This document shows positions 786 through 49,156 of a stretch of 64,000 nucleotides of DNA, piece after piece. Position numbers and translations under genes: made by a program. Each line of letters opens with the position of its first letter. Within the stretch, counting starts at the first letter, position 1. Origin of the DNA: an uncultured Gammaproteobacteria bacterium (GTDB taxonomy: Bacteria; Patescibacteriota; Patescibacteriia; UBA1558; UBA10009). The notes under the pieces are model-generated. The model searched no databases, had not been told where the DNA came from, and saw only the letters and a program-made list of their open reading frames with translations. Where the stretch lies: positions 3,425-67,424 of the forward strand of contig CAZPMS010000006.1 in the NCBI GenBank assembly GCA_964588165.1. Direction: 5' to 3'.

Positions 786-1316
786 TTACACTACAAAAGC
801 CGCGGGGTCGCCGTGGCTGAAGTCATAACCAAGCCAGTGTCCAAGCCAGCCCCACCTGTCGTCGTCCCAGTAGAGGAAACGAACGCTTAGGTCGCCATTT
901 GGGTAGCGATATATGGTACCCCAGAAGAAGATACGTTTACTTTTCCATTCCTCAGGAATAAGGTACGGATAAGCAAGTAGGTAGTCAAGGACATTGGCGT
1001 TGAAAACGGGCTTACCTTTCAGCTCCTTGTAAAGCTCATTGCCTTCAATTGCACTATCACCTTCTTGCTTCTTGGAAAGATAGAAAGAAACCCCGTTGGG
1101 ATCCCATTCCAGCTGTCCGCCATTGGTATGCTCTTCGACTTTCCAGTCTTTGGGCGCGAAAGGTTTGGCATCGCAATCAATAATACTGGTACCTCTTAGT
1201 AAAATCTGCAAGCCGGCCTTGGTAATTCTTCCGCTCTCAATTTGAGCGAAAAACTCTTTTAGCTGAGCGGGCGTTGGAGCTTTTGGACCCCAGTCAGCAG
1301 CATGTGATCTATGCAT
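786..1316 (-). CDS. hypothetical protein, Trp-rich (GC-rich islet ORF 1)
   Basis: 176-177 aa ORF. ATG at 1316 lies 6 nt after AGGAGG (the track start is GTG at 1319). G+C is clearly higher than the flanks. Own promoter and terminator. No family recognised. Confidence 0.6.
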   Translation of the reverse strand: MHRSHAADWGPKAPTPAQLKEFFAQIESGRITKAGLQILLRGTSIIDCDAKPFAPKDWKVEEHTNGGQLEWDPNGVSFYLSKKQEGDSAIEGNELYKELKGKPVFNANVLDYLLAYPYLIPEEWKSKRIFFWGTIYRYPNGDLSVRFLYWDDDRWGWLGHWLGYDFSHGDPAAFVV

Positions 1317-1458
1317 CACACACCTCCTATTTTAAACACTTTGCTAGAGGACTACCCCTTGTAGTCATAGCCAGAAATTACCATCCTTCGACAAAATATA
1401 GGATAACAAGTAACTTTTGGCTATAACTACTAGATTAAATGAACTTAAAGAATATATT

Positions 1459-5707: not shown

Positions 5708-6640
5708 ATGCCAAAATCAAAAAACATCAAAGAGATTAAAACCAATAAAATGAAATGGATTTACTTAACCAATAACTCAAAAAGGGAAATTGATTATTTA
5801 AGGAACCATTTTTCTTTCCACCCATTAGATCTAGAAGATTGCCTTTCTCCGGCTCAACGGCCAAAGCTGGATGAATACCAAAACTATATTTTTATGATAA
5901 TGTCTTTCCCCTATTTTAACCGTTCTACCAGAGAAATACTGGCATCGGAAGTGGATTTTTTTATTGGCCCAAATTATTTAGTAACCGTTTCTGACGGCAA
6001 GCTGGCACCTTTAGCCAATTTTTTTGAACAATGCCAAATTAATGATTCTTACCGAGAAAAGTTTTTAGTTGATAGCCCGGCTTTTTTACTTTCAGAAATC
6101 TTAAATAAGCTTCAGCTTTACCTCCACCCAATGCTGGACCATATTCATGTTGATATCGAAAATGTCCAAAAAGTTATATTTGCCGGCTATGAAAAAAAGA
6201 TGGTTAAAGAAATTTTAATGGTTAAACGAAATATTATCAGCTTTAGAAAAATTATGCAGGCCCATAAAAACGTTATCCGCAAGCTCATTTCTAAAAAAGA
6301 AAAATTCTTTATTCCCAACACGGCTAATGTTTATCTTTCCAATAATCTGGAACAATCTAAAGATGTTTGGGATAATCTAGAAAGCCTTAAAGAAAATGTA
6401 GAAGCTTTGCATACAACCAACGAATCTTTAATTTCATTCAGGTTAAACGACATCATGAAAATTTTAACCATGATTTCTGTGATACTCCTGCCGATTAACT
6501 TAATTGCTTCCATTTTTGGCATGAACACGCCAATTATGCCTTTTATAAATAATCCAAACGGCTTTTATATTATTTTAGGCCTAATGTGCTGTTTGATAGT
6601 GTCTTTCTTCTTTTTCTTTAAAAAGAAAACTTGGCTATAA
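5708..6640 (+). CDS. corA: magnesium/cobalt transporter CorA
   Basis: 310 aa with two C-terminal TM helices and the signature FGMN (ASIFGMNTPIMPF). Confidence 0.85.
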   Translation: MPKSKNIKEIKTNKMKWIYLTNNSKREIDYLRNHFSFHPLDLEDCLSPAQRPKLDEYQNYIFMIMSFPYFNRSTREILASEVDFFIGPNYLVTVSDGKLAPLANFFEQCQINDSYREKFLVDSPAFLLSEILNKLQLYLHPMLDHIHVDIENVQKVIFAGYEKKMVKEILMVKRNIISFRKIMQAHKNVIRKLISKKEKFFIPNTANVYLSNNLEQSKDVWDNLESLKENVEALHTTNESLISFRLNDIMKILTMISVILLPINLIASIFGMNTPIMPFINNPNGFYIILGLMCCLIVSFFFFFKKKTWL

Positions 6641-7396: not shown

Positions 7397-8260
7397 ATGA
7401 GAAGAAGGTGGATAAAAATTGACGGTACTGATACCGTTATCCGCGGTAAAACGGTAACTTTGAATTTAGAGTTACCGAGTGAATTCCAAAACGTTCACAG
7501 TCGTGATTTGGTGATAAACTGTGATGAAGGAAATGTACTGATTTGTGAAAGGGATGGTATTCACATCGCACCGACCATTGAAGTTTTTCCTGATACTCCT
7601 GATGTTCTTACTTTGGAAGTTAAGGGTAAGCTCATTCATCAACCAACAACAAGGACTGATTCTGCAAAGGAAACCGGCAGAGGAGATCCTTACAAAGTTG
7701 GCGAGCCACAGGTGGAACCGATTTTCGCCGATCCTGATCCGGAAGCTGAAGAAGAAGCAGAACTGGAACAGATTGGTGAAAGAATTACTATCACCCAAGA
7801 AATGCCGGTATACGAAACCACTGAAATCCATCACTTTGAGGCTGAAGAAAATTATTCTGCACGCTTTACTTTCAGGGTGATTGATTCTCGGCCGCTGATC
7901 AAACGTAACGAACTCACTGAGCTTCGGTTTGAGCTACCTGATGGTTTCGGCAAAATCAATGAACATCATCTACCAAAGATTTTGGGAAAGGGCGCCTACG
8001 TTACCGAGTGGCAACAGATAGGCCAAGCCTTAACTGTTTCGGTGAAGACCAAAAAGTCTTCACCCGAGGAAATTACTCTGCGGGTTCGCGGCATGTGTGA
8101 AGGCGAACATACTGAGGAATTCTTCAAAATTGATGTAGAGCCGGAAACTGAAAAGGTTAAGAGAAAAACTCTTATAGCCTTGGCAATACTTCTGCTGATA
8201 GCTGCCAGCTTTGTTTCGGGCATATACATTTCTACTCTTTTCCCTCTGTTATTTCAGTAG
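7397..8260 (+). CDS. hypothetical tail-anchored protein with two beta-rich repeats and an acidic linker (GC-rich islet ORF 2)
   Basis: 287 aa. Internal repeat (..LTLEVKGK.. / ..ITLRVRGM..), DPDPEAEEEAELEQ linker and a single C-terminal TM helix. High G+C. SD GAGAGG. Confidence 0.6.
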   Translation: MRRRWIKIDGTDTVIRGKTVTLNLELPSEFQNVHSRDLVINCDEGNVLICERDGIHIAPTIEVFPDTPDVLTLEVKGKLIHQPTTRTDSAKETGRGDPYKVGEPQVEPIFADPDPEAEEEAELEQIGERITITQEMPVYETTEIHHFEAEENYSARFTFRVIDSRPLIKRNELTELRFELPDGFGKINEHHLPKILGKGAYVTEWQQIGQALTVSVKTKKSSPEEITLRVRGMCEGEHTEEFFKIDVEPETEKVKRKTLIALAILLLIAASFVSGIYISTLFPLLFQ

Positions 8261-8515: not shown

Positions 8516-10882
8516 ATGGCTACCACCGCAAAAGAAGTAGCTGGCGCAGCCACTGCTACCTCAGCTGCCGCAGCCAGAGAACAATTCCGTTTGGAACTGT
8601 GGCAAGTTTTCCGCGACATTCTTATCGGCAAAGACAAGTGGGTTGATGAAGTTGCCAGAACCCATTACGAAAACCAATTCAAGGAACAGTTTTCGGAGAA
8701 ATACGACCTACTTCTGAAAATGCTTCATCCCGACAACCTAAGTACTACCGACCAGCATTGCCTGGATATGGTGGCCTTGGAACATGCCAAGTTGGCCGAT
8801 AAATCTTTGCACGAAAAGGATACGGCTAAGCTCATACCAGGGATGTTTAAAATCTTCTGCGACAAGTTGGAAGAAGTTATTGACTTGGCTACCGAAGGTG
8901 ATGAGTTTGACGTCATCAAAGCGCACACACTGCTCCGGGACAAACGCTGGATCGGTCAGGGCTTCTGGGCTCAAAGGCTAAAGGAAAACATGGGTGAAAT
9001 TCTCAAGCTGGGTTGGATTTCTGAAGGCCTGAGAAGATTTATCCAATCTCCTATCGTTCATGACTTCATGGAAGGAGCTGAACAGCCTTCCATCGATTTC
9101 TTTGAATGGGCCCAGCAGCATTACAACCTCGCAGCCAAAATACGCAGCGGAGCACCCAGTAATCGCCGTTACAGCAACAACCCCTTCAAAAACTTTTTTG
9201 TAGGGCTGCAGTTGATGATTGGTGTTGCTTGGAACTATCTGATGGTAGGCTTGGGCAAGGTGAACAAGTTAAGGCAACAGAATTGGCACAGGATTGGCAA
9301 AAGGACCTTCTGGACAACCATAATTGTTCTGGGTGTGGTCATTGCTTTCCTGATACTGCTGGGATTAGGAATCCACAACAGCTACTTCAAAAGTACCAAC
9401 TACCTTTGGCTTATTGCGACTGCTGGAATTCTACTGTTCATCATCTTTGCTACACTCAAGATTATTGAGGCTGCACTGGGATTGGCCATCTTCACGGTAC
9501 GCTTGGCTTTTGCTGTTATAGCTAGGCCGTCCCTCTGGACCGTTGAACAAGGCGGTAAGTTTATCTGGCAAGTTGGTACTTGGCCAATTGAATTTGGCTT
9601 TGACGCTATAACCGACACCTTTAAGGGGCTATTAATGTTCTTAGGGGTTGATATTGAGGACATTGAACGGTTAAGCGACAGAAAATTCGAACTGACTGAA
9701 GCTCAGAAATCTGCTTGGGGAGATTTAAGTAAACGAACAGAAGACTTGATGAAAGGCGCCCGCCAAACCAGTATTTTCATCACTGTCGGCTTCAAGTATT
9801 TTGCGGCGCTGATAACTTCCACTTCTTTCCTGATCTTGGCCAAATGGCAGTTTTCTGGCGTAGACTCCAGTGCGGTTTTGAACAATCCGGTTTTTGCTCT
9901 GCTGATTCTTTTCCTGCTGGGCTCGCTTTTCACCCATTTTGGAATCCGTGAATATCAGGCAAGAATTGCTAAAGCTACCGGCTTAGATGACAAAAAGCGC
10001 TCCTGGCGAACAGTTAACCGGATTGCTTTTGCTTGCCTTGTTCTGCTGATTCTGGCTGAATGGCGATTTGAAACCGTCACTAACGTCTGGTACTACAATG
10101 CCAGGCAATCAGCAGCCATAACCGAACACGCAAACCAAGAAAGGAGGCTTAAAACTGCGATTTGGGAAAAAAATCGCAGTGCAACAATTCATCGTGGAGC
10201 AACTGTATTTTTGGCAGAAACCGATACAGAAAACGATGATGAGTCTTACATCGTCATAACCGACTCAACTTTCAGCCGGCCAAATCCGAATGTGGTTTAT
10301 GTGGTAAAACCTGCCCTTGAGCAAAACGGCCAGGTATTTACTATCTACAACCCCATTGACCAAAATGGCATCAGGCAAGCAAGCCTGCAATACGCTGTTT
10401 TGGCTCAATATCTGGATCAGGTTACTCCAAACGAGGCAGCCCGCTTGCTGGCTACCAAAACTGAGGCAAAGCCATCATTAATGCCTAGCTCCATTACTTA
10501 CAATCCGAGCAAAGGCATGGCAGTGCTTGGGTATGTTAACACCGATGATGTTCTTTATCTGGATCCTGTCCAACTGTCACTACTTAGCTGTCCTGAAGAA
10601 AGCGATATTGGACTGAAAGGTACCCATGGTACACCGCGTAGCCGCCATGAAGATTGGCCTGAAGAATTCGTTGATCAGCGCATGCGGCTTGGCGCCCTGT
10701 TGGTGAAATTACCAGCTTATGGTTGGCAACCTTTGTACCAAGCCGAGTCATTCAACATCCGTGGCAGCGGAACAGCCATGGTCTGCGTTAATACGCGGCG
10801 TGGGCTTTTTGGCCTTAACGAAGGAGGAATGGTAGATATTGCTATCAGGCTGGAAACCTATGCCGAAATGGCACAACGTTAA
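8516..10882 (+). CDS. hypothetical polytopic membrane protein, 788 aa (GC-rich islet ORF 3)
   Basis: Long uninterrupted ORF at roughly 45-60% G+C in sampled stretches. Soluble N-terminal ~270 aa, ~8 hydrophobic helices, soluble C-terminal ~250 aa. No family recognised. Confidence 0.65.
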   Translation: MATTAKEVAGAATATSAAAAREQFRLELWQVFRDILIGKDKWVDEVARTHYENQFKEQFSEKYDLLLKMLHPDNLSTTDQHCLDMVALEHAKLADKSLHEKDTAKLIPGMFKIFCDKLEEVIDLATEGDEFDVIKAHTLLRDKRWIGQGFWAQRLKENMGEILKLGWISEGLRRFIQSPIVHDFMEGAEQPSIDFFEWAQQHYNLAAKIRSGAPSNRRYSNNPFKNFFVGLQLMIGVAWNYLMVGLGKVNKLRQQNWHRIGKRTFWTTIIVLGVVIAFLILLGLGIHNSYFKSTNYLWLIATAGILLFIIFATLKIIEAALGLAIFTVRLAFAVIARPSLWTVEQGGKFIWQVGTWPIEFGFDAITDTFKGLLMFLGVDIEDIERLSDRKFELTEAQKSAWGDLSKRTEDLMKGARQTSIFITVGFKYFAALITSTSFLILAKWQFSGVDSSAVLNNPVFALLILFLLGSLFTHFGIREYQARIAKATGLDDKKRSWRTVNRIAFACLVLLILAEWRFETVTNVWYYNARQSAAITEHANQERRLKTAIWEKNRSATIHRGATVFLAETDTENDDESYIVITDSTFSRPNPNVVYVVKPALEQNGQVFTIYNPIDQNGIRQASLQYAVLAQYLDQVTPNEAARLLATKTEAKPSLMPSSITYNPSKGMAVLGYVNTDDVLYLDPVQLSLLSCPEESDIGLKGTHGTPRSRHEDWPEEFVDQRMRLGALLVKLPAYGWQPLYQAESFNIRGSGTAMVCVNTRRGLFGLNEGGMVDIAIRLETYAEMAQR

Positions 10883-14306: not shown

Positions 14307-14762
14307 ATGGACCAGCATGTATTTACTTTGAAAGGACGCTTCTGGTGCCTTGGAGGCCTTAGCGTTCATAGGGCTTTATTAAGGCCAGCTGACTACCTGC
14401 AAGATCCTAGGCCGACTCTGGGCGAAATGACCAAGGCATTCTTTAACCTGATGCATCTGAAACTTGGCAGGCTCGAACTTCCTATCCAAAAGGGTGGCCA
14501 TGGAGAAATCTGGATTTTTTATCCTAATGGATCTGGATTTAAAATTGAATTCAGGGAAGGGAAATTATGCCTCATCCGTTTTGGCAAATTCAGTGATGAT
14601 AGTCTGGATGTAAAATATCATGAAAATATTCTCGCCAAAATACCAATAGGCTCCCTGCCTCCAGAAGCAATAAAACAAGATTTTGTGCTTGACAATGGAA
14701 TGATACTGAATCACGATTCAATATCTCAACTAGGAACTGTCTTTACTGGCCTAGCCGCCTAA
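14307..14762 (+). CDS. hypothetical protein (GC-rich islet ORF 4)
   Basis: 151 aa. Higher G+C than the flanks, with SD AAGGAG 7 nt upstream. No family recognised. Confidence 0.55.
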   Translation: MDQHVFTLKGRFWCLGGLSVHRALLRPADYLQDPRPTLGEMTKAFFNLMHLKLGRLELPIQKGGHGEIWIFYPNGSGFKIEFREGKLCLIRFGKFSDDSLDVKYHENILAKIPIGSLPPEAIKQDFVLDNGMILNHDSISQLGTVFTGLAA

Positions 14763-16903: not shown

Positions 16904-18151
16904 TTACTCGTTCCTTAAAGCAGTAATAGGATCCATTTTAGCCGCCTTTCTGGCTGGCACAAGGCCGAAAATTAAACCAATGGCGATAGAAACACTGGCC
17001 GCTATTAAAAGTGATTCCGGTTTAATTATAAACTCCCAATCCATACCCTGGCTTTTGGCACCGATTGATGTTATAAAAGATATTAAAATTCCTAAAATAA
17101 TTCCCAAGACTCCCCCGCTAAAGGTTAACACTACCGACTCCCATAAAAATTGCGATAGGATGCTTTTATAACTCGCGCCAACGGCTTTTCTTAGGCCTAT
17201 TTCATAAGTTCTTTCCGAAACAGAAACAAACATAATATTCATAATGCCCACTCCGCCAACAATTAAGCTGATGGCTACAATAGACATTAATAATAAAGTT
17301 ATACCGGCAAAAATAGCATCCCAAATTTCCATCATTTCTTCCATGGTAATTACGCCAAAATCATCTTTATTAGGATCGGTTATGCCATGCCTATCTCGCA
17401 TTAATAAAGTTATCTCCTCTGAAGTGGCTTTGCTTAATTCTTGATCTATCAAATTTCCCATAATAAACATAACGTGGTCTATGCCCATTACCAATTTTTG
17501 CAAAGTCCTCAATGGAATCAAAATCATATCATCCATATCCATATACATTATGGCGCCCCTTTCTTCCATTACTCCGATAACTTTGTAATTATTCTTGCCT
17601 ATTTTAATAGTTTCACCAACTGCATCACTTTCACCAAAATAGTCCTCTTTTATTTTTTTACCGATCACAGCCACCTTAGCTAAACTTTTATCCTCTTGGT
17701 CTGTAAAAAATCTACCTTCAGCTATTTCTGAAGTGTCTATATCTAAATATGAAGACGTAACTCCCCAAATCTGCTTCATATCCGATTCATCGTATTTTGT
17801 TACCATAGCCTGCCCGATTATGGCCGAATAGACATCAGAAATATTTGGGTGCTTTTTTACTGCATCAGCATCAGACTCTTTTAAAGTGGTTATACTTACG
17901 CCCATAACCATACTGGTGGCGTTTTCTGATGAAGCATGCGAGGTGCTGGGAGTTTTAACTTCTATTTCAATAAAATCAGATCCCCAGGCTTCTATTTGTG
18001 AAAGCATTAATCCCTTTAGGCTTTCACCAGCCGAAAATACAAGTATCACAGAAGTTATACCTATAACGATTCCTAATATAGTTAAAAAACTTCTTAACTT
18101 ATTTACGGTTAAGGCATTATAGGCGATCTTGATTGAACTTAAAAATCTCAT
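16904..18151 (-). CDS. ABC transporter permease, MacB/FtsX family
   Basis: 415 aa. N-terminal TM, large periplasmic domain, and three C-terminal TM helices with the FtsX-type motif ERTYEIGLRKAVGA. Confidence 0.85.
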   Translation of the reverse strand: MRFLSSIKIAYNALTVNKLRSFLTILGIVIGITSVILVFSAGESLKGLMLSQIEAWGSDFIEIEVKTPSTSHASSENATSMVMGVSITTLKESDADAVKKHPNISDVYSAIIGQAMVTKYDESDMKQIWGVTSSYLDIDTSEIAEGRFFTDQEDKSLAKVAVIGKKIKEDYFGESDAVGETIKIGKNNYKVIGVMEERGAIMYMDMDDMILIPLRTLQKLVMGIDHVMFIMGNLIDQELSKATSEEITLLMRDRHGITDPNKDDFGVITMEEMMEIWDAIFAGITLLLMSIVAISLIVGGVGIMNIMFVSVSERTYEIGLRKAVGASYKSILSQFLWESVVLTFSGGVLGIILGILISFITSIGAKSQGMDWEFIIKPESLLIAASVSIAIGLIFGLVPARKAAKMDPITALRNE

Positions 18152-18261: not shown

Positions 18262-19497
18262 TTATTCATGTCTCAAGGCTTCTATAGGATCTAATTTTGC
18301 CGCCTTTTTAGCAGGGAAATAACCGAATATTAAACCAATAGCGCAAGAAACAACAAAACCTACAATAACTGACGAAGGAGTTACAACATAATTCCAACTA
18401 TATCCTAAATAATTAGCCACCATGGCTACAGCTCCAGAAAATATAGAGCCAAATAAAATTCCTGTTATTCCGCCAAGGATTGTAATAATAATAGCCTCTA
18501 TTAAAAACTGGCTTAATAAATTTTGTTTTGTGGCTCCAACAGCTTTTCTTAAGCCTATTTCTTTGGTTCTTTCTGTGACTGAAACATACATTATATTCAT
18601 AATGCCTATCCCGCCAACTAATAACGATATGGCAGCAATAGCTGCTAAGAAAAATTTAAGCGCATCGGTTATCATAGTTAACATTTCCAAAGCTTCTGCC
18701 TGATTCCTGACTTCAAAATCATCCTCTTTAGGATTTTTAATGCTATGCCTGTCTCTTATTACCTGATTAATTGCTTCGGTGGCAATTTCCATATTTTGGC
18801 TGTTATCTATTTTAGCCCTGATTAAACTAACATGGTTTATGCCCAATAAAAGCTTTTGGGCCGTTTTAAGCGGAATAAAAACATGTTCGTCTACACTTTC
18901 AAAAGCTACAGTTCCTCTTTCCTTCATTACTCCAATTACTTCAAAACTTTCCCGCTTAATTTTTATTTTATGCCCTATGGGGTCTTCGTCCTCAAATAAT
19001 TCTTTAGCTGCTTGGAAACCCAAAACCGCCACCCTAGAAATTCCCTTTTCTTCTTGCTCAGAAAAAAAATGGCCGTTTATAACAGCCGTATCTTCTATAT
19101 CTAAATAGCTTGCAGTGGTGCCTACAAAAGTTGTATCTAATTTCTGATTCTGCCAAGAAAGAGTTTCTATTCCCCTAACAAATGAGGTGGCCGCTAAAAC
19201 TTCCGGTACTTGCCTGGCTATAGCCAAGCCATCTTCATATTTTAAAGTTGTAACTGTTATGCCAAAAGCAGCAGCCGGCGGCCCATCATCAGAGGCATTG
19301 CCCGGCATAACGCTTAATAAATTAGAGCCTACTTTTTCTATTTGAGATAATATTAAACTCTGGGCTCCGGCCCCAACAGACATAATAATAATTACCGCCG
19401 AAATGCCAATAATAATCCCTAACATAGTTAGGGCACTTCTGGTTTTATTCGTTTTTAAACCAATAAAAGAAATATTGATTATGCCTCTTAAATTCAT
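18262..19497 (-). CDS. ABC transporter permease, MacB/FtsX family (paralog)
   Basis: 411 aa with the same architecture; ERTKEIGLRKAVGA. Confidence 0.85.
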   Translation of the reverse strand: MNLRGIINISFIGLKTNKTRSALTMLGIIIGISAVIIIMSVGAGAQSLILSQIEKVGSNLLSVMPGNASDDGPPAAAFGITVTTLKYEDGLAIARQVPEVLAATSFVRGIETLSWQNQKLDTTFVGTTASYLDIEDTAVINGHFFSEQEEKGISRVAVLGFQAAKELFEDEDPIGHKIKIKRESFEVIGVMKERGTVAFESVDEHVFIPLKTAQKLLLGINHVSLIRAKIDNSQNMEIATEAINQVIRDRHSIKNPKEDDFEVRNQAEALEMLTMITDALKFFLAAIAAISLLVGGIGIMNIMYVSVTERTKEIGLRKAVGATKQNLLSQFLIEAIIITILGGITGILFGSIFSGAVAMVANYLGYSWNYVVTPSSVIVGFVVSCAIGLIFGYFPAKKAAKLDPIEALRHE

Positions 19498-33308: not shown

Positions 33309-33415
33309 CCTACAGTTTATGCCGCCTTTAGGAGGTGGCAAAACTGTTGCTCCCTGCCCCGTTTACTCCAAACAAATGTGAGGAGTTATGCGGGGTACCA
33401 TTGAGCTACAACGGC
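33309..33415 (-). pseudogene. ghost tRNA-Thr(UGU), 5' two-thirds, different acceptor (GCCGTTG), two hairpin insertions
   Basis: GCCGTTGTAGCTCAATGGT[43-44 nt hairpin 33353-33396]GAGCAACAGTTTT[GCCACCTCCTAAAGGCGGC 33321-33339]ATAAACTGTAGG. T-arm and 3' acceptor are missing. Confidence 0.8.
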
Positions 33416-34202: not shown

Positions 34203-34318
34203 AAGTGCTCCCTGCCCCGCTTACTCCGAACAAAAGTAGGAGTTATGCGGGGTACCAACTGAGCTACAACGGCAATAATGTTTTTTTAAAAAAACATATT
34301 CTTATGGCATAACTTCTT

Positions 34319-41429: not shown

Positions 41430-42088
41430 GCTAATTTAAATTTATTTATTTCTAAGCTGAATTTATAACCTAAATATTCTGCCGAATGCCGACAATAAAC
41501 CATCCTGGCGGTAAATATTTCAAAATAATTCATTGGCTGGGTAAACTTGGTATCAATTGTTAAATCAAGAGTGATGGTTTTTTTGCCATTATTTATTTTA
41601 AGTTGGTTGTCCTTAACAGCATAATTAACTCGGTCATGGATATCCGCTTTTATTTTATCCATCTTTTTAGTTAAAACCCGGCTACGATGAACATCGGACT
41701 TATCGGCAATTATGGCAGCTGCAGAAACTTTACTCATTATATTTATATCTTCTTTATCATGGGCCACAATGGCTTCCATAATGTCAGAAACCTGTTTAAC
41801 ATCTTTGTTATTGCCAAAAACCTGATGGAATAAAAGCCCAGCCCAATAATGATGGTAAGTCCTGCCTAAAAAATTACCCATATCATGGCAATAGCCGGCT
41901 ATCTTGGAATTTTCCGTATCAACTTTGCTAAACTTTAAATTCCTGGCAATTTTTCCTGCCCTATCGGCCACAATGCCCACGTGCCTAAAACCATGGTCAG
42001 TATAACCAATATCTTTTAAATATCCAGCTGACTGTTTTATAAACTGCTGGATTTGCGGATTAGCTTTTACTTGTTCAAAGGTTATCAT
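41426..42088 (-). CDS. HD-domain phosphohydrolase
   Basis: 220 aa. H..HD pattern (FRHVGIV...GYCHDMGN). Confidence 0.75.
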   Translation of the reverse strand: MITFEQVKANPQIQQFIKQSAGYLKDIGYTDHGFRHVGIVADRAGKIARNLKFSKVDTENSKIAGYCHDMGNFLGRTYHHYWAGLLFHQVFGNNKDVKQVSDIMEAIVAHDKEDINIMSKVSAAAIIADKSDVHRSRVLTKKMDKIKADIHDRVNYAVKDNQLKINNGKKTITLDLTIDTKFTQPMNYFEIFTARMVYCRHSAEYLGYKFSLEINKFKLA

Positions 42089-42098
42089 GATTTAATAA

Positions 42099-42114
42099 TT
42101 GATGAATAATGATT
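42099..42114 (-). repeat. 16-nt upstream motif AATCATTATTCATCAA (copy 2, before the HD gene)
   Basis: Exact copy, 11 nt upstream of the ATG at 42088. Confidence 0.6.
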
Positions 42115-42123
42115 CATGACTGA

Positions 42124-43923: not shown

Positions 43924-44299
43924 GCCATTCCGAGCTTGTCGAGGAATCCCGTTATTCCGGAAAGACGATTTTTAAATTCTTATTAACTCGCTTTATTAAA
44001 TCCAATTTTTTAAAACGACTCCATTTTTTTAACTGTTTTTCTCTATCAATCGCTTCAATAATACTTTCATAACTTTCAAAATAAACTAATTCATCAACAT
44101 TATATTTTTTAGTAAATCCTTTTAATTTTAATTGATGTTCATCTAATCTTCTAGCTAAATCATTGGTAACTCCTATATAAATCACTGTTCTCCTATGATT
44201 CATTAAAAAATAGACGTAAAATTCTTTTTGTAACACATTTTAAACTTTCCTACCCTGATACATTTATTAACGGGATCTCTCCACCTTGGTCGAGATGAC
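43924..44299 (-). mobile_element. GTCAT-TIR element carrying a GIY-YIG gene (putative autonomous partner of the 83-bp MITEs)
   Basis: Plus-strand left arm GCCATTCCGAGCTTGTCGAGGAATCCCGTTA (43924-43954). The right arm 44268-44299 reverse-complements to GTCATCTCGACCAAGGTGGAGAGATCCCGTTA. The ORF stop TAA lies inside the left arm. Confidence 0.7.
43952..44236 (-). CDS. small GIY-YIG nuclease-family protein (COG2827-like)
   Basis: 94 aa. FYVYFLMN..VIYIGVTNDLARRLDEH..FTKKYNV..LVYFE. Confidence 0.85.
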   Translation of the reverse strand: MLQKEFYVYFLMNHRRTVIYIGVTNDLARRLDEHQLKLKGFTKKYNVDELVYFESYESIIEAIDREKQLKKWSRFKKLDLIKRVNKNLKIVFPE

Positions 44300-44309
44300 G
44301 TCTGAGAAA

Positions 44310-45599
44310 CTACGGTTTTAATCTGGTAATCATTCTAGGAAATGGAATTGTTTCCCTAACATGTTTAGTACCGCAGATCCAGCCAACCAGCCTTTCTAAG
44401 CCAACGCCGAATCCGGAATGAGGCACACTACCGTATTTTCTTAAATCCAAATACCATTGGAAATCTTTTATAGGCAATTTGTGTTCTTTAACTCTTTTGA
44501 GTAAAGTGTCATAATCATCCTCACGTTGACTGCCGCCGATAATTTCACCAAAACCTTCTGGGGCTATCATATCATCACAAAGTGCCAACTTGCCGGACTT
44601 ATCGCGCTTCATATAAAAAGCTTTAATGGCTGCCGGCCACTTATCTACAAACACCGGCACATCTGAATCTTTGGTTAATAAAGTCTCATCATCGCCGCCT
44701 AAATCCTCGTTATCTTTAATATCTGATCCAAGTTTTTGAAGTTTTTTTACAGCCTCTTTGTGTGTCATTCTTACAAATGGAGCTTTGATTTTTTTAAGCT
44801 TAGCAGTATCCCGTTCTAAAATCTCTAATTCCTTTTTATTTTCTGAAAGTACCTTTTTAACAATATATGAGACTAACTCTTCCTGGATCTTCATATTTTC
44901 TTCATGTTCAACAAAGGCTGCTTCTGCGTCCATCATCCAAAATTCTGTAAGATGCCTGCGGGTTTTGGATTTCTCGGCTCTAAACACTGGGCCAAAGTCA
45001 AAAACCTTGCCTAACGAAAATATGGCCGCTTCTATATATAACTGTCCTGATTGCGAAAGGTAAGCTTTGCCTAGGTCAAAATAATCCAGTTCAAATAAAG
45101 TTGTGGTGCCCTCACAGGCGTTGGGAGTTAAAATCGGCGAATCAATCTTAATATAGCCCTGGTTATTTAAAAATTCGTAAATTGAGTTTATGATGGTGTT
45201 CCTAACTTTTTGGATGGCCCACTGTTTGTTTGAACGTAGCCATAAATGACGATTATCCAATAAAAAATCCGGTCCATGCTCTTTTTTGGAAATCGGATAT
45301 TCTTCAGCCACCTGGACTAATTCAATATCGCTGACTTGGAGTTCATATTCTTCCTTTTTTGGATGTTTACTTATTTTTCCAGATAATATAGCTGACGATT
45401 CTTGAGTGATTTTCTCAACTTCCTTCCATACCTTGCCAGATACTTCCTTTTTATTAACAATGGCCTGAATAAAACCAGAACCGTCTCTAACCTGTAAAAA
45501 ATAAAGGCTTCCGGAAGATCGGAAGTTATAAATCCAGCCCTGAATTTTTGCTTCTTTACCCTCAAATTCAGAAGCTTTCGTAATTGTAATTTTTTCCAT
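44310..45599 (-). CDS. asnS: asparagine--tRNA ligase
   Basis: 429 aa. OB-fold N-terminus, FRAEKSKTRRHLTEFWMMDAE (motif 2), GFGVGLERL (motif 3). Confidence 0.92.
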   Translation of the reverse strand: MEKITITKASEFEGKEAKIQGWIYNFRSSGSLYFLQVRDGSGFIQAIVNKKEVSGKVWKEVEKITQESSAILSGKISKHPKKEEYELQVSDIELVQVAEEYPISKKEHGPDFLLDNRHLWLRSNKQWAIQKVRNTIINSIYEFLNNQGYIKIDSPILTPNACEGTTTLFELDYFDLGKAYLSQSGQLYIEAAIFSLGKVFDFGPVFRAEKSKTRRHLTEFWMMDAEAAFVEHEENMKIQEELVSYIVKKVLSENKKELEILERDTAKLKKIKAPFVRMTHKEAVKKLQKLGSDIKDNEDLGGDDETLLTKDSDVPVFVDKWPAAIKAFYMKRDKSGKLALCDDMIAPEGFGEIIGGSQREDDYDTLLKRVKEHKLPIKDFQWYLDLRKYGSVPHSGFGVGLERLVGWICGTKHVRETIPFPRMITRLKP

Positions 45600-45652
45600 A
45601 AGTTGTAGATATTATACTATTTTTTGACTATTTTGTGAAGTTAATGATTGTA

Positions 45653-45681
45653 TTGACTAAACTAAGTTAACGTGTAAAAAT
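45653..45681 (+). promoter_or_regulatory. candidate promoter of islet ORF 5
   Basis: TTGACT (45653-45658) with TGtAAAAAT about 15-17 nt downstream. A second TTGACT lies at 45624. Weaker than the other islet promoters. Confidence 0.4.
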
Positions 45682-45736
45682 ATCCCTATTGTACATTACA
45701 AAACATACATCGTTTAACTAGCTGGAGATTAGAACC

Positions 45737-46354
45737 ATGAAGAAAGTTTTTGGAGTCTTAGCCGTTCTTTTATGCTTTCTGCTGTTGGTAGCTACCTTTG
45801 CCTTCCCATTCTGGAACGATAATCGGTTGGCCGTCAAAGAGCGCAGCGAAGCCATTGTAGCTGCTCAGGAATTCACCGTTGAAGGCCAATTGCTGGCTAC
45901 CGTTCACTATTCACTGGAAGGTATTGAAACCAAGGGAGAATTTAACCAGACTTTCATTGAACTGGTAAACCAACAAATTCCCTCCTACAACGACGCCGGC
46001 CAACGGCTGATAACCTATTGCTATATAGCCGGCCAAGAATCGTCTTCACAGCAAGAAATCTTATTGGCCAAACAGAACCTTAAGCCTTGCCAGAATTCGA
46101 TTATGATATTTTTGGCAAATTCCGAAGGGAAAACAAATTGCTACTTGATTATTGATAATTATTGGTCGAGCAACATGCCTGCAATTATGGGAATGTTTAT
46201 GAAGCCGAATACTGGACCGCTAACAGAGACTTTTACAGCTTTGATGATTGGCGCAACAATAAAAATTCCTTCAACTGTTTTATTGACCGGTGGCTGGATT
46301 CCCAATAACCTGGTGTATTTCTCCGATGAACAAATCCCTTATTTAACCAGTTAA
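45737..46354 (+). CDS. hypothetical secreted/anchored protein (GC-rich islet ORF 5)
   Basis: 205 aa. N-terminal signal/anchor MKKVFGVLAVLLCFLLLVATFAF. SD GGAG. Higher G+C than the flanks. Confidence 0.55.
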   Translation: MKKVFGVLAVLLCFLLLVATFAFPFWNDNRLAVKERSEAIVAAQEFTVEGQLLATVHYSLEGIETKGEFNQTFIELVNQQIPSYNDAGQRLITYCYIAGQESSSQQEILLAKQNLKPCQNSIMIFLANSEGKTNCYLIIDNYWSSNMPAIMGMFMKPNTGPLTETFTALMIGATIKIPSTVLLTGGWIPNNLVYFSDEQIPYLTS

Positions 46355-46372
46355 TTATTTGACCACCTCTAT

Positions 46373-46410
46373 CCGCCAAGCTACTTATGCCTGGCGGTTT
46401 TTATTTTTTT
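46373..46410 (+). terminator. Rho-independent terminator of islet ORF 5
   Basis: CCGCCAAG...CCTGGCGG stem followed by TTTTTATTTTTTT. Confidence 0.7.
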
Positions 46411-46558
46411 ATAAAACTTTTAATTTCTTCTGAAGTTAATTCCCGCCAATTTCCAGGCGGTAAATCTTCCATTTTAATGCTACCAACTCTGATTCTTTTC
46501 AAACTGACCACTTCATAGCCTATATTTTCTACCATCCGCCTTATTTGCCTATTCCAGC
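46401..46558 (-). pseudogene. orphan 3'-terminal fragment of the rluB-type pseudouridine synthase gene
   Basis: An open frame without a start: GWNRQIRRMVENIGYEVVSLKRIRVGSIKMEDLPPGNWRELTSEEIKSFIKK*. A ~103-bp block (46456-46558) is near-identical to 47193-47295 inside the live gene. Confidence 0.85.
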
Positions 46559-46562
46559 CCTA

Positions 46563-46591
46563 TTGACAATATTTTTAATATATGATATTAT
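46563..46591 (+). promoter_or_regulatory. sigma70-type promoter of islet ORF 6
   Basis: TTGACA (46563-46568), N17, TATTAT (46586-46591). Starts 5 nt after the end of the duplicated rluB block. Confidence 0.65.
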
Positions 46592-46619
46592 TTATTATTC
46601 GATCTTTCTTTATTGACCA

Positions 46620-46640
46620 TTTAGTACTAATAGTACTAAA
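46620..46640. promoter_or_regulatory. 21-bp near-perfect palindrome in the islet-6 leader (operator-like)
   Basis: TTTAGTACTAATAGTACTAAA (two TAGTACTA palindromes) between the -10 and the SD. Confidence 0.45.
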
Positions 46641-46682
46641 CTTCAAAAGAGTGAAAAGTGCCAAACCACAGTGAGGGAAATT

Positions 46683-47096
46683 ATGAGGTATCCGAACTCT
46701 TTTCTGAAGAATGGTCCGCTTTATGTGGTCATTCTAGCTGCTCTCGTTTTCGTAACGGGGTTTGTTCAGTACAACAGCGACAGCCATCACTTCAGCATTC
46801 AGCACGAAACTTTCGTCGCAGGCGACAACCAGGCCTCATTGATCGGCTACACAGTTGCTGATCTGGAAAATTATGGGCAACGTTACCTTGAAGCCAAGTA
46901 TCCTGGGACATCCCAACTGCCACGCTTCGTAAACGTGGCATTAGGAATGATACCTGTACTACTTCTTCCACCAAACATTTTTTGGTCGCCAGCAATCATT
47001 CTTACATTTATGCTATGCGGAATCTGCGGAATATTGCTTACCGGAATAATTTCTAACCGCAATATGAATTGCCTCAAACCAACTTTATCACAATAA
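46683..47096 (+). CDS. hypothetical membrane protein (GC-rich islet ORF 6)
   Basis: 137 aa from the ATG at 46683, with SD GAGGGA (the track starts at GTG 46671). About 3 TM helices. Higher G+C. Confidence 0.5.
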   Translation: MRYPNSFLKNGPLYVVILAALVFVTGFVQYNSDSHHFSIQHETFVAGDNQASLIGYTVADLENYGQRYLEAKYPGTSQLPRFVNVALGMIPVLLLPPNIFWSPAIILTFMLCGICGILLTGIISNRNMNCLKPTLSQ

Positions 47097-47125
47097 ACAA
47101 TGAGAGGTACAAATTTTCTAAACGA

Positions 47126-47821
47126 TCATCCTCTGAAAGCCTCGGCAAATGCTGAGGCTTTTTCTTTTTCTGTAAGATTACGCCACTTACCGGGCGGTAA
47201 ATCTTCCATTTTAATGCTACCAACTCTGATTCTTTTCAAACTAAGCACCTCATAGCCTATATTTTCTACCATCCGCCTTATTTGCCTATTCCAGCCTTGG
47301 TGGACTACAATTCGTAATTTATTATCCGAAACTCTTAAAATCTTATCGGCCTTGGCAATTCCCTCCCTCAACTTGATGCCCTGTCTCAATTTTTTAATTG
47401 ACTGTTCATTAATTACTTGTTCAGTTTCTACTAAATATTCTTTTTCATGTTTGAACTTGGGATGCATTATTTTATTGGCAAAGTCGCCGTCATTAGTAAG
47501 GATAATCAAACCGGATGATTCTACATCTAACCTGCCAACCGGATAAATTCTTTCTTTAATATCAATCTTTTCTATAATATTATCTCTTTTTGTCTCATCA
47601 GTTGTGCAAATAACACCAACCGGTTTATGGTAAGCAATGTAAATTGATGACTGATGATTAATGATTAATTTTTTTCCGACCTTAACTTCATCAGTCTCAT
47701 CAACCTGGCTACCAAGTTCGGCTATCTCATCATTAATAAAAACCTTGTTTTGTTTTATTAGTTCATCAGCTTGCCTGCGTGAACAGTGTCCGCTTTCGGC
47801 TAAATATTTGTTTATTCTCAT
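47126..47821 (-). CDS. rluB: 23S/16S rRNA pseudouridine synthase, RsuA/RluB family
   Basis: S4 domain MRINKYLAESGHCSRRQADELI, catalytic VGRLDVESSGLIILTNDG. The C-terminal ~10 aa derive from islet sequence. Confidence 0.88.
   Translation of the reverse strand: MRINKYLAESGHCSRRQADELIKQNKVFINDEIAELGSQVDETDEVKVGKKLIINHQSSIYIAYHKPVGVICTTDETKRDNIIEKIDIKERIYPVGRLDVESSGLIILTNDGDFANKIMHPKFKHEKEYLVETEQVINEQSIKKLRQGIKLREGIAKADKILRVSDNKLRIVVHQGWNRQIRRMVENIGYEVLSLKRIRVGSIKMEDLPPGKWRNLTEKEKASAFAEAFRG
47139..47170 (+). terminator. terminator of islet ORF 6, embedded in the rluB 3' coding end
   Basis: GCCTCGGCA-AAT-GCTGAGGC followed by TTTTTCTTTTTC. Its reverse complement encodes the last residues (ASAFAEAFRG) of the live rluB gene. 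Confidence 0.7.
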
Positions 47822-47830
47822 ATTTAATGA

Positions 47831-47846
47831 TTGATGAATAATGATT
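47831..47846 (-). repeat. 16-nt upstream motif AATCATTATTCATCAA (copy 3, before rluB)
   Basis: Exact copy, 10 nt upstream of the ATG at 47821. Confidence 0.6.
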
Positions 47847-47854
47847 AATGAATT

Positions 47855-47936
47855 ATCTGTGAGTAATCCCTACCTTCCGGCAGGCAGGCGTGGGTCATCT
47901 GGTGGGTAATCAGTAAATATCTGTGACTTATCCGTG
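47855..47936 (+). repeat. phased heptamer array E (ATCTGTG, ATCTGGT, ATCAGTA, ATCTGTG, ATCCGTG) with a GC hairpin insert
   Basis: Heptamers start at 47855, 47897, 47909, 47919 and 47930. The hairpin CCTACCTTCCGGCAGGCAGG lies at ~47868-47887. The array abuts TTGACC at 47937. Confidence 0.65.
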
Positions 47937-47985: not shown

Positions 47986-48077
47986 ATAACACGAATGCTC
48001 GCTATTCTTTTACAGATTACACACTAATCCGTGCGCTATTAGTGTTTTATCCGTAAGCAACAGTGTTATTAGTTATT
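47986..48077 (+). repeat. noncoding element F, copy 2 (possible sRNA or cis element)
   Basis: Homologous to 2404-2497 (see that feature). Lies between candidate promoter E and the islet-7 terminator. Confidence 0.55.
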
Positions 48078-48150: not shown

Positions 48151-48645
48151 TTACTTTTTCAGCTTCTTGCCGAAGCCTTCATTGTCAAGAAATGTGAGCG
48201 CTTCAATCCAGAGAATGGCCTTAGCCATTTCTTGTGCGACACACTTCACGTTTCGACCACCAGGACCGTAAGTGAATTTACTGACACCCAGCGGGTATTG
48301 AGTACTGAAAGAGGCAATAATACCCTCAGTCATTTTCTGTTTTCCGCTGGTCTCGATAATTTGAGTTACGATTGGCCACTTAAAGTCATCACGGGTATGG
48401 TTGGATACCACTGCCCCGACTACCATCCCAAGGTTCCAGTTGACATCGCGTAGATGATCAAGCCCTTTGCCCTCAGCAAGCCACTCGTTGACCACCGTTT
48501 TTACTATTGGCCAGCTCCATTGCCAGCAACCAACTCCCACCAGAAGCAAATCACGATTGTCATGTACTCGAATGCCAGCCTTAGAAAACTTTATAAAGTT
48601 TTCTTTTAAAGCCCTTTCCTCTCGATTCTTCTCTTTGAAAGTCAT
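48151..48645 (-). CDS. hypothetical protein (GC-rich islet ORF 7)
   Basis: 164 aa, preceded by AGGAGGAG 3 nt upstream... of the ATG. Higher G+C. No family recognised. Confidence 0.55.
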   Translation of the reverse strand: MTFKEKNREERALKENFIKFSKAGIRVHDNRDLLLVGVGCWQWSWPIVKTVVNEWLAEGKGLDHLRDVNWNLGMVVGAVVSNHTRDDFKWPIVTQIIETSGKQKMTEGIIASFSTQYPLGVSKFTYGPGGRNVKCVAQEMAKAILWIEALTFLDNEGFGKKLKK

Positions 48646-48777: not shown

Positions 48778-48954
48778 TGGCTGCCGGGGCTGGATTTTCA
48801 CCCCGCCGTATTGGCTGTGGAGACAGGACTCGAACCTGTAACATTCGCATTAACAGTGCGACGTTCTACCATTGAACTACTCCACAACTAATGTAGATAG
48901 ACGAAAATACTGCCCGCCAAAGGCGGGTCCGCCCTTGGCGGAAACTACCCGGCA
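48778..48954 (-). pseudogene. outer (disrupted) tRNA-Asn-like gene enclosing the intact tRNA-Asn
   Basis: The 5' piece is TGCCGGG-TA-GTT[twin hairpin 48913-48942]CAGTA (48954->48908). The 3' piece is ...CCCGGCA-G-CCA (48809->48778). The acceptor halves TGCCGGG/CCCGGCA are perfectly complementary. The anticodon arm is missing. Confidence 0.7.
48812..48886 (-). tRNA. tRNA-Asn (anticodon GUU)
   Basis: 75 nt TGTGGAG-TA-GTTC-AATGGTA-GAAC-G-TCGCA-CTGTTAA-TGCGA-ATGTT-ACAGG-TTCGAGT-CCTGT-CTCCACA-G-CCA. A U1-A72 pair also occurs in E. coli tRNA-Asn. Confidence 0.9.
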
Positions 48955-48977
48955 AACTTGTTCGCCGAAGAGGCGAA

Positions 48978-49003
48978 ATAAAAAACCCGCCGAACTTGGC
49001 GGG
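48978..49003 (-). terminator. Rho-independent terminator downstream of the GerMN lipoprotein gene
   Basis: Minus strand CCCGCCAAGTTCGGCGGG followed by TTTTTTAT. Confidence 0.7.
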
Positions 49004-49156
49004 ATTATTACTTTTTACTAAATAACAACTCACCAAGTTCTAAACCGGTTATTATTGTTTAAATTGTTGTCTTTTCTTAACATATTAATAATTTATCAGA
49101 TTTAATCTATTTGTCAACTCTTCCTAGTTACTAATTACCAGTTACTAATTACCAAC

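Follow-up and report, generated by a model that had tools for sequence, protein, structure and literature searches.

How does the end of a housekeeping gene come to stand twice on a chromosome, head to tail, with a small gene of opposite orientation between the copies? This question is raised by a locus in a stretch of 64,000 nt (hereafter the window) from contig CAZPMS010000006.1 (GenBank assembly GCA_964588165.1), which belongs to an uncultured bacterium placed in the Patescibacteriota (UBA10009) by the GTDB taxonomy. The gene encodes a pseudouridine synthase of the RsuA/RluB/RluF family and is called here the live gene. Downstream of it lie, in order, the plus-strand gene ORF141, an orphan copy of the synthase gene end, a second plus-strand gene, ORF205, and asnS. 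A sequence-only reading had taken the ORF141 unit for an islet inserted into the 3' end of rluB. The analysis presented here points to two alternative versions of the whole interval between synthase and asnS, probably stacked by one recombination event.

The duplicated end of the synthase gene

A direct repeat of 136 nt links positions 46424-46559 to positions 47161-47296, with 89% identity and a spacing of 737 nt. It was the strongest repeat in a self-comparison of the whole window (E = 2.5e-46), and blastn aligned the repeat over 116 nt at 94.8% identity, with E = 1e-47 against seven metagenome contigs. Computational alignment thus bears out the earlier claim that the two blocks are nearly identical. 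The similarity that had been followed to 46401 and 47140 (up to 155 bp) does not extend so far, as the last seven codons of the two copies are unrelated (ends KASAFAEAFRG and IKSFIKK).

The repeat starts at a codon boundary of the synthase frame, GGC TGG, encoding the Gly-Trp of the HQGWNRQIRR motif, and consists of two parts. The core comprises the first 34 codons (47296-47195 in the live gene and 46559-46458 in the orphan copy) and is identical at 99 of 102 nt. All three mismatches fall inside 7 nt (GAG GTG CTT vs GAA GTG GTC), and resemble one small mosaic patch more than mutations that arose separately. In the tail, the next 12 codons differ at 14 positions, leaving 22 of 36 nt identical (61%); seven of the 12 amino acids are conserved, five of them through different codons. 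The drop from 97% to 61% is abrupt (Fisher p = 2.8e-7). The genes of relatives share 54-71 of 102 nt with either core and no more, and the two tails are about as dissimilar to one another as to the tails of other genera (13-28 of 36 nt). The near-identical cores thus reflect very recent shared ancestry, and the tails derive from alleles long separated and kept under selection. Thus, a 99/102 core followed by a 61% tail with altered codons suggests that tails from long-separated functional alleles have been joined to near-identical cores.

The orphan copy (46401..46559, minus strand) consists of the last 52 codons and stop of a synthase gene: the core at 46458-46559, the tail at 46404-46457 and the stop codon at 46401-46403. 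It reads LPPGNWRELTSEEIKSFIKK and then stop, and none of the upstream part of the gene is present. Within it, a minus-strand open reading frame of 44 codons, from 46535 to 46401, is the same synthase 3' end. No promoter-like site was predicted on the minus strand upstream of the fragment. The earlier description of the left copy as a 3' fragment with an intact C-terminal frame and no 5' part therefore holds, with the addition that the fragment lacks a promoter. Its end (LTSEEIKSFIKK, WRELTSEEIKSFIKK, stop) is typical of the family, which suggests that it was part of a working gene until recently.

The live gene (47126..47821, minus strand, 231 aa; Pfam S4 and PseudoU_synth_2) carries the right copy of the repeat at 47161..47296, with the core at 47195-47296 and the tail at 47161-47194. 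Its end reads LPPGKWRNLTEKEKASAFAEAFRG and WRNLTEKEKASAFAEAFRG before the stop and is not typical of the family. The last 11 codons are the complement of the hairpin and T-run of the intrinsic terminator of ORF141 (47135..47172, plus strand; a 12-bp stem then a T-run, -19.8 kcal/mol, z = -4.15). The T-run corresponds to the EKEK codons, and the stop codon (47126-47128) sits 7 nt past the hairpin at 47135-47162. Hence the live gene does read through the terminator of its neighbour, as had been noticed before. The same interlocking is found at the other unit, where the T-run of the ORF205 terminator (46373..46410, plus strand; -14.3 kcal/mol, z = -3.84) is the complement of the last codons and stop of the orphan tail. 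In each unit, then, the terminator tightly overlaps the tail of a synthase gene.

Among the NCBIfam models, RluF gave the best score (229.9 bits, cutoff 318), ahead of RsuA and RluB (RluB 123.9 bits, cutoff 290). Every equivalog cutoff was missed and only the subfamily model TIGR00093 was passed. The protein is therefore closest to RluF, and rluB, the name given to it earlier, serves as a family-level label only. The nearest homologues are from Komeilibacteria-type Patescibacteria; the protein forms a cluster of one member, and the next relatives are 66-69% identical. Over its first 12 codons the live tail is closest to that of the nearest relative, locus L088 (28/36 nt and 10/12 amino acids), while the orphan tail matches the same locus at 20/36 nt. 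The synthase of L088 itself has a long non-canonical tail (870-906, ending KSSLPKSQKIV) that crosses the asnS promoter and stops inside its -10 box, TATAAT. This tail is another sign that the last residues of the enzyme are expendable in the clade. A third, older gene-tail remnant was considered at 45611-45650 of the window, which resembles the L088 end SQKIV, and was rejected. The same sequence is the conserved asnS promoter and serves as such in L009 and L008, where the synthase ends far away; the L088 gene appears simply to have extended into it. At the other end of the live gene, a 38-nt repeat (89%; 42082-42119 and 47815-47851) covers the start-codon regions of the synthase and of a 220-aa ORF that lies downstream of aspS. 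Motifs like TGATTAATGA abound in this repeat and recur at 47643-47669.

The stretch 45600-47900 is 100% identical in four JGI and ENA contigs that span it, and another three contigs, which are shorter, agree with it at 99.9-100% where they overlap. The same structure is thus present in seven metagenome assemblies that are independent of one another and differ in sample and pipeline. This genome is contained in the JGI samples 3300009375, 3300009374, 3300008627 and 3300009405 and in the ENA entries ERZ23499057, ERZ23499079 and ERZ23498658. This concordance, together with the unique sequence across the junction at 46559|46560, makes an assembly chimera very unlikely. At this junction (46559..46560) the orphan core, whose 5' edge coincides with a codon boundary (GGC TGG), meets the upstream edge of the ORF141 promoter (cta TTGACA). 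Judged by the arrangement of the sequence, it appears to be the sole illegitimate junction, everything else being colinear with a normal locus. A repeat search found no inverted repeats at the unit boundaries.

The interval between the synthase gene and asnS

The comparison covered about 165 loci that encode relatives of the synthase; ten of them keep the order synthase then asnS. No second synthase copy was found within 3-5 kb of the gene in these loci, or elsewhere in the window. Orphan fragments were likewise absent from the relatives' intervals, even in permissive short-query searches, so that this lineage stands alone among the roughly 165 loci. In the ten syntenic relatives the gap between synthase and asnS varies from 37 to ~1,780 nt. 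It is shortest in L088 (37 nt) and L173 (~70 nt), measures ~85-110 nt in L008 and L172 and ~305 nt in L090, and reaches ~540-550 nt in L091 and L171, ~1,040 nt in L009, ~1,560 nt in L092 and ~1,780 nt in L170; in the window it is ~1,530 nt. Occupied gaps contain small ORFs, often one or two, that face the synthase, have no Pfam match and carry membrane or lipoprotein-type N-termini, several starting with lipoprotein-type signal peptides. Each facing ORF has its own strong promoter beside that of asnS and a terminator hairpin that abuts or overlaps the A-rich end of the synthase gene. The facing ORFs are mutually unrelated, with two exceptions: the pair in L091 and L171 (85% identical), and ORF205 with ORF238 of L170. 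The facing ORF174 of L009 ends in a perfect tandem direct repeat of ~30 nt (5740-5800; cttcttctgccatcgattcctgtggcgg). Comparison of these loci indicates that the synthase-asnS interval is, in this clade, a variable slot holding zero, one or two facing genes.

The slot is bounded by asnS (44310..45599, minus strand), a conserved downstream neighbour identified by a domain match and synteny. Between asnS and ORF205 two promoters lie back to back (45611..45681). The asnS promoter, TTCACA-17-TATAAT on the minus strand from 45639 to 45611, is conserved in L009 and L171, and the ORF205 promoter reads from TTGACT at 45653 to AAAAAT at 45681 on the plus strand. ORF205 (45737..46354, plus strand, 205 aa) encodes a predicted membrane-anchored or secreted protein and faces the orphan fragment. 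It is the positional homologue of L170 ORF238. The two proteins match end to end by BLASTP (E = 6e-10), and their Smith-Waterman score of 114 was reached by none of 1000 shuffles (30 +/- 4.5). Both genes occupy the same position and orientation, adjoining and diverging from asnS, with similar promoters. A word-indexed search with ORF205 found only the protein itself.

ORF141 (46683..47096, plus strand) faces the live gene and encodes a small predicted membrane protein of 137 aa from the ATG at 46683, or 141 aa from the GTG at 46671. It has no similarity to ORF205 (E = 1.6; Smith-Waterman 27). It was found alone among 5.8 billion clustered sequences (word-indexed search) and 1.84 billion representatives (exhaustive HMMER search); the sole other match, to a hydrophobic stretch of a repetitive 2,742-aa protein, was taken as compositional. 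There was no match in Pfam, PHROG, PADLOC, NCBIfam or viral contigs, and the AlphaFold2 model is helical and of low confidence (pLDDT 57, too low for a fold search). The unit as a whole had no match in phage, plasmid and viral-contig collections or in a metagenome pattern scan. An exact 27-mer of the core also had no match in the metagenome and viral collections, the metagenome collection evidently being one without contigs of this organism. The G+C content of ORF141 is 44% and that of ORF205 is 42%, against 36% for the window. Five other window ORFs of similar flavour, with 42-49% G+C and no Pfam match, lie at 786-1319 (minus), 7397-8260 (plus), 8516-10882 (plus), 14307-14762 (plus) and 48151-48645 (minus). 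Three of the five lie on the plus strand, while the minus strand carries 57 of the 64 long ORFs of the window.

The promoter of ORF141 (46563..46591, plus strand) is TTGACA-17-TATTAT with a TG element and matches the consensus at 11 of 12 positions. As had been noticed before, TTGACA lies next to the repeat boundary; this -35 box begins at 46563, 3 nt past the last repeated base. The motif TATTGACA-N11-ATATGATATWAT occurs once in the window, with up to three mismatches allowed. Among the fetched loci of relatives, it has an exact match only in L091, at the slot promoter that lies back to back with that of asnS. Near-identical versions, also back to back with the asnS promoter, are found in L171, L092 and L090. 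The promoter of the ORF141 unit is thus the clade's own slot promoter. Together with the closeness of the first 12 codons of the live tail to those of the nearest relative, this contradicts a reading of the unit as an alien islet. Both units of the window, in fact, look like normal occupants of the slot.

Explanations of the stacked arrangement

From the two-part repeat, the variability of the slot, the conserved promoter and the homologue of ORF205, we infer a mechanism and an order of events. In the favoured explanation, the genome would carry two alternative versions of the whole interval, head to tail, each running from synthase codon 179 through tail, terminator and facing gene to a promoter. 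In a single recombination event, with an illegitimate end at 46559|46560 and a homologous end elsewhere, the second version would have been added to the first and not exchanged for it. The homology may have been provided by the synthase core or body, or else by asnS. Of the two tails, the live gene would have retained the one that runs through the ORF141 terminator; the other would persist, together with 102 nt of core, as a silent remnant still locked to the terminator of ORF205. This stacking of two slot alleles in one event is, in our judgement, the best and a reasonably probable explanation. The proposal of incoming DNA that carries homology, made from the sequence earlier, gains support from the step from 97% to 61% with differences of a synonymous type, because such a step suggests that one tail arrived on DNA with its own homologous synthase 3' end; it also matches the displacement model for rhs loci (PMC2935791). 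The structure, with its one illegitimate junction, is symmetrical, and it may just as well be the ORF205 unit, together with the orphan fragment, that was added.

The ORF141 unit is slightly favoured as the later arrival. The clue for this order is that the canonical tail of the orphan interlocks with the ORF205 terminator, and that the positional homologue of ORF205 is an old one. Clues for the reverse order are the resemblance of the live tail to L088 and that of the ORF141 promoter to L091 and the versions in nearer relatives. These clues conflict, and several further points weigh against the favoured explanation. The searches turned up neither a strain of this species with one unit only, nor an empty-site or other alternative allele, nor a donor, and the event and its direction were not observed; the ten syntenic relatives lack the duplication. 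To combine near-identical cores with very different tails, a conspecific donor would be needed in which tail and slot had already been exchanged, or else gene conversion or homogenization of the cores at a later time, and either is an extra unobserved step. In addition, no microhomology with a donor can be read at the junction.

Two specific routes differ in which unit is new. In the Campbell-type route, a sub-case of the favoured explanation in which ORF141 is the newcomer, a circle of 737 bp with core, alternative tail, terminator, ORF141 and promoter would have entered the 102-nt core of a resident gene with the canonical tail by one homologous crossover. The observed order of live gene with new tail, cargo, and partial core with old tail is exactly what such a crossover predicts. 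The same model has been proposed for rhs tip arrays (PMC2935791), and the orphan holds the canonical tail locked to the conserved neighbour ORF205. Nevertheless, a circle with a core of 97-100% identity and a tail of 61% must itself derive from a conspecific genome or from a previous copy of the structure. No circle, replication or transfer function, or second copy was found in protein, metagenome, viral, phage and plasmid searches. The junction of a circle would be identical to the chromosomal one, so that assemblies cannot reveal it. The circle fits only with ORF141 as the newcomer and is a possible, somewhat improbable route. In the reverse direction, the resident arrangement would have been synthase with the live tail, ORF141 and asnS. 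The incoming DNA, from another strain, would have run from codon 179 of the synthase gene of that strain through ORF205, recombining homologously in asnS or its promoter and illegitimately just upstream of the ORF141 promoter. The match of the live tail to L088 (28/36 nt and 10/12 amino acids, vs 20/36 nt for the orphan) and of the ORF141 promoter to the slot promoters of the closer relatives L091 and L171 agrees with this order, and only one chromosome and one standard one-sided homologous event are required. The positional homologue in L170, which has a similar promoter, means that ORF205 is not evidently foreign, and it is the live tail that is aberrant; this order of events is tentative, having perhaps one chance in a few.

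Spontaneous tandem duplications are common, and a tandem duplication in place, followed by replacement of the tail and facing gene of one copy with a foreign allele through homologous recombination, would account for the identical cores and the one illegitimate junction. This requires two events where one suffices, as well as a replacement crossover that falls exactly on the boundary of core and tail; given also that ORF141 and ORF205 lack similarity, it is regarded as unlikely. Duplication followed by divergence of one unit was rejected, as the two facing genes are unrelated and the orphan tail still looks selected. The form of the structure, a duplicated gene end whose element-side copy has diverged yet still codes, would fit the remnant or satellite of an integrase-driven element that targets a gene 3' end and brings a replacement end, either moved in trans or trimmed by deletion. 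Yet no recombinase was called within ~6 kb on either side, and no recombinase domain was found among the off-strand and high-GC ORFs of the window, a scan that did not cover every window ORF. The unit is 737 bp with a single 137-aa ORF without a domain, it lacks inverted repeats and database matches of phage, plasmid or viral origin, and its promoter is the chromosomal slot promoter of relatives; such an origin is very improbable. That the left block is an independently truncated second paralogue, or that the structure is an assembly chimera, is a bare possibility and so improbable as to be nearly negligible. The former, in the form of a paralogue common to all relatives, had been named in the sequence-only reading as what would overturn it; no second copy turned up near the gene in the ~165 loci or elsewhere in the window. 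The latter is opposed by the seven identical assemblies.

Target duplications made by transposases are far shorter than this repeat, as had been argued before. A transposon was rejected because the repeat measures 102-136 nt, including a diverged part, vs ~2-15 bp, and because there are no terminal inverted repeats and no transposase domain. A long target-site duplication of recipient sequence was rejected as well, the 36-nt tails differing at 14 positions in a mostly synonymous pattern. An integron cassette finds no support: no attC site (the only Rfam match is a tRNA) was found, no integrase within ~6 kb or among the atypical ORFs of the window, and the units carry their own promoters. As for the suggested homing, there is no endonuclease in 46560-47160. 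The nearest gene with a nuclease domain is a small, conserved GIY-YIG ORF ~2.2 kb away, between asnS and aspS (43952-44236, minus strand). It occupies the same place in L171 (5548-5850) and is absent from L008, L009 and L172. Homing is therefore unsupported, because the unit has no endonuclease and L171, which has the GIY-YIG ORF, lacks the duplication.

On the favoured explanation, the structure is a recombination scar at a variable slot, tidy but ordinary, and indicates no new class of mobile element and no new enzyme. It explains both an odd gene call of 44 codons and the aberrant C-terminus of the synthase, and marks a small recombination hotspot in a streamlined, uncultivated candidate-phyla genome. 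It would also mean that the orphan-tip architecture of polymorphic toxin loci can arise at an ordinary housekeeping gene and needs only a variable neighbouring slot and recombination. The more noteworthy biology is the slot itself, in which unrelated membrane or lipoprotein genes, several of them without detectable relatives, swap behind a conserved promoter. The defined junction and the pair of 102-nt repeats can be used to gauge recombination in the natural population from reads; loss of the ORF205 unit would join CTATTGACA directly to the asnS promoter. It seems doubtful that the ORF141 unit is a recurrent, non-autonomous 737-bp cassette, a small circle that carries a replacement 3' end of a housekeeping gene and inserts by a single crossover. 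If it were, candidate-phyla bacteria could stack and swap genes for surface proteins, lineage-specific and strongly expressed, in a fixed expression slot without a recombinase, and toxin-tip displacement would have its counterpart at a housekeeping gene.

Neighbouring features and known parallels

In four lineages tRNA-Asn is preceded by a short ORF with many Asn codons: at ~48960-49090 (minus strand) in the window, ~4370-4480 in L170, ~6440-6555 in L009 and ~3025-3135 in L092. It reads MLRKDNNLNNNNRFRTW, MELKYRQIINNNDNNRFRAR, MSRKYCQIINNNDNNRTS and MRLTRDNNNNDNNRL, respectively, each ending in a stop, and is followed each time by a GC-rich hairpin and a T-run. It looks like a leader-peptide attenuator that would sense Asn-tRNA. 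Rfam gave no match at the leader, and the tRNA-Asn of the window lies at 48812-48886. In the window the module of leader and tRNA-Asn (48812-49156) is situated between a Germane-domain gene and ORF164/synthase, and in L009, L092 and L170 it is situated between synthase and asnS. This difference suggests that a local rearrangement separates those lineages from that of the window. A 47-nt direct repeat (87%; 2452-2498 and 48031-48077) lies just downstream of two unrelated minus-strand genes, an 856-aa ORF and ORF164. A 69-nt repeat (91%; 33348-33415 and 34206-34273) lies just upstream of each of two tRNA-Thr genes. Two adjacent minus-strand ORFs of 415 and 411 aa (16904-18151 and 18262-19497), with stretches ~79% identical in nucleotide sequence, appear to be tandem paralogues.

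In replacement-type flexible genomic islets, unrelated genes occupy the same position between conserved flanks. The slot resembles them in that unrelated genes lie between the same flanks across lineages, with variability that reaches into the end of a flanking gene. It differs in that the alternatives are stacked here, not exchanged, and that the recombination boundary is exposed as an orphan fragment. Integrating elements provide another parallel. Element e14 and phage 21 integrate at the 3' end of icd in Escherichia coli and bring a replacement end. There, too, a duplication of ~100-170 nt of the gene 3' end flanks the insert, and the gene stays intact. Unlike these elements, the insert described here is 0.74 kb with no integrase or phage genes found, and its promoter is native to the chromosomal slot of relatives.

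Experimental events of homology-facilitated illegitimate recombination reportedly delete recipient DNA in most cases, rather than leave a partial gene duplicate. The process has been described in bacteria capable of natural transformation (de Vries & Wackernagel 2002; Prudhomme et al. 2002; Meier & Wackernagel 2003, all cited in PMC5361080; also PMC3240628). The locus would share with it a scarless homologous end, a single illegitimate junction and a net gain of ~0.75-0.9 kb. It differs in giving no sign of DNA uptake, of a donor or of microhomology at the junction.

The closest formal parallel is the C-terminal displacement of rhs, CDI and T6SS loci (Jackson et al. 2009, PMC2935791; Kirchberger et al. 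2017, PMC5361080), the architecture of which would here be found at a housekeeping gene. In rhs loci, partial cores are almost identical to the upstream gene and each bears a dissimilar tip; circular intermediates that recombine through the core have been proposed (PMC2935791), as has homology-facilitated illegitimate recombination for such arrays (PMC5361080). As in rhs, cdiA and T6SS arrays, the full-length gene is followed by a fragment with a near-identical partial core (99/102 nt) and a different tip, each tip has its own downstream gene, and the fragment has no start and is probably silent. The proposed mechanisms are also shared, namely a homologous anchor with an illegitimate end, or a circular intermediate. 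In contrast to those arrays, the main gene encodes an rRNA pseudouridine synthase and not a polymorphic toxin, and there is a single displaced fragment. The tip is only 12-23 codons long, with no domain of its own and no toxin domain. The neighbouring genes, without a match in Pfam, PADLOC or NCBIfam, are not co-oriented immunity genes; they face the main gene and are equipped with their own promoters.

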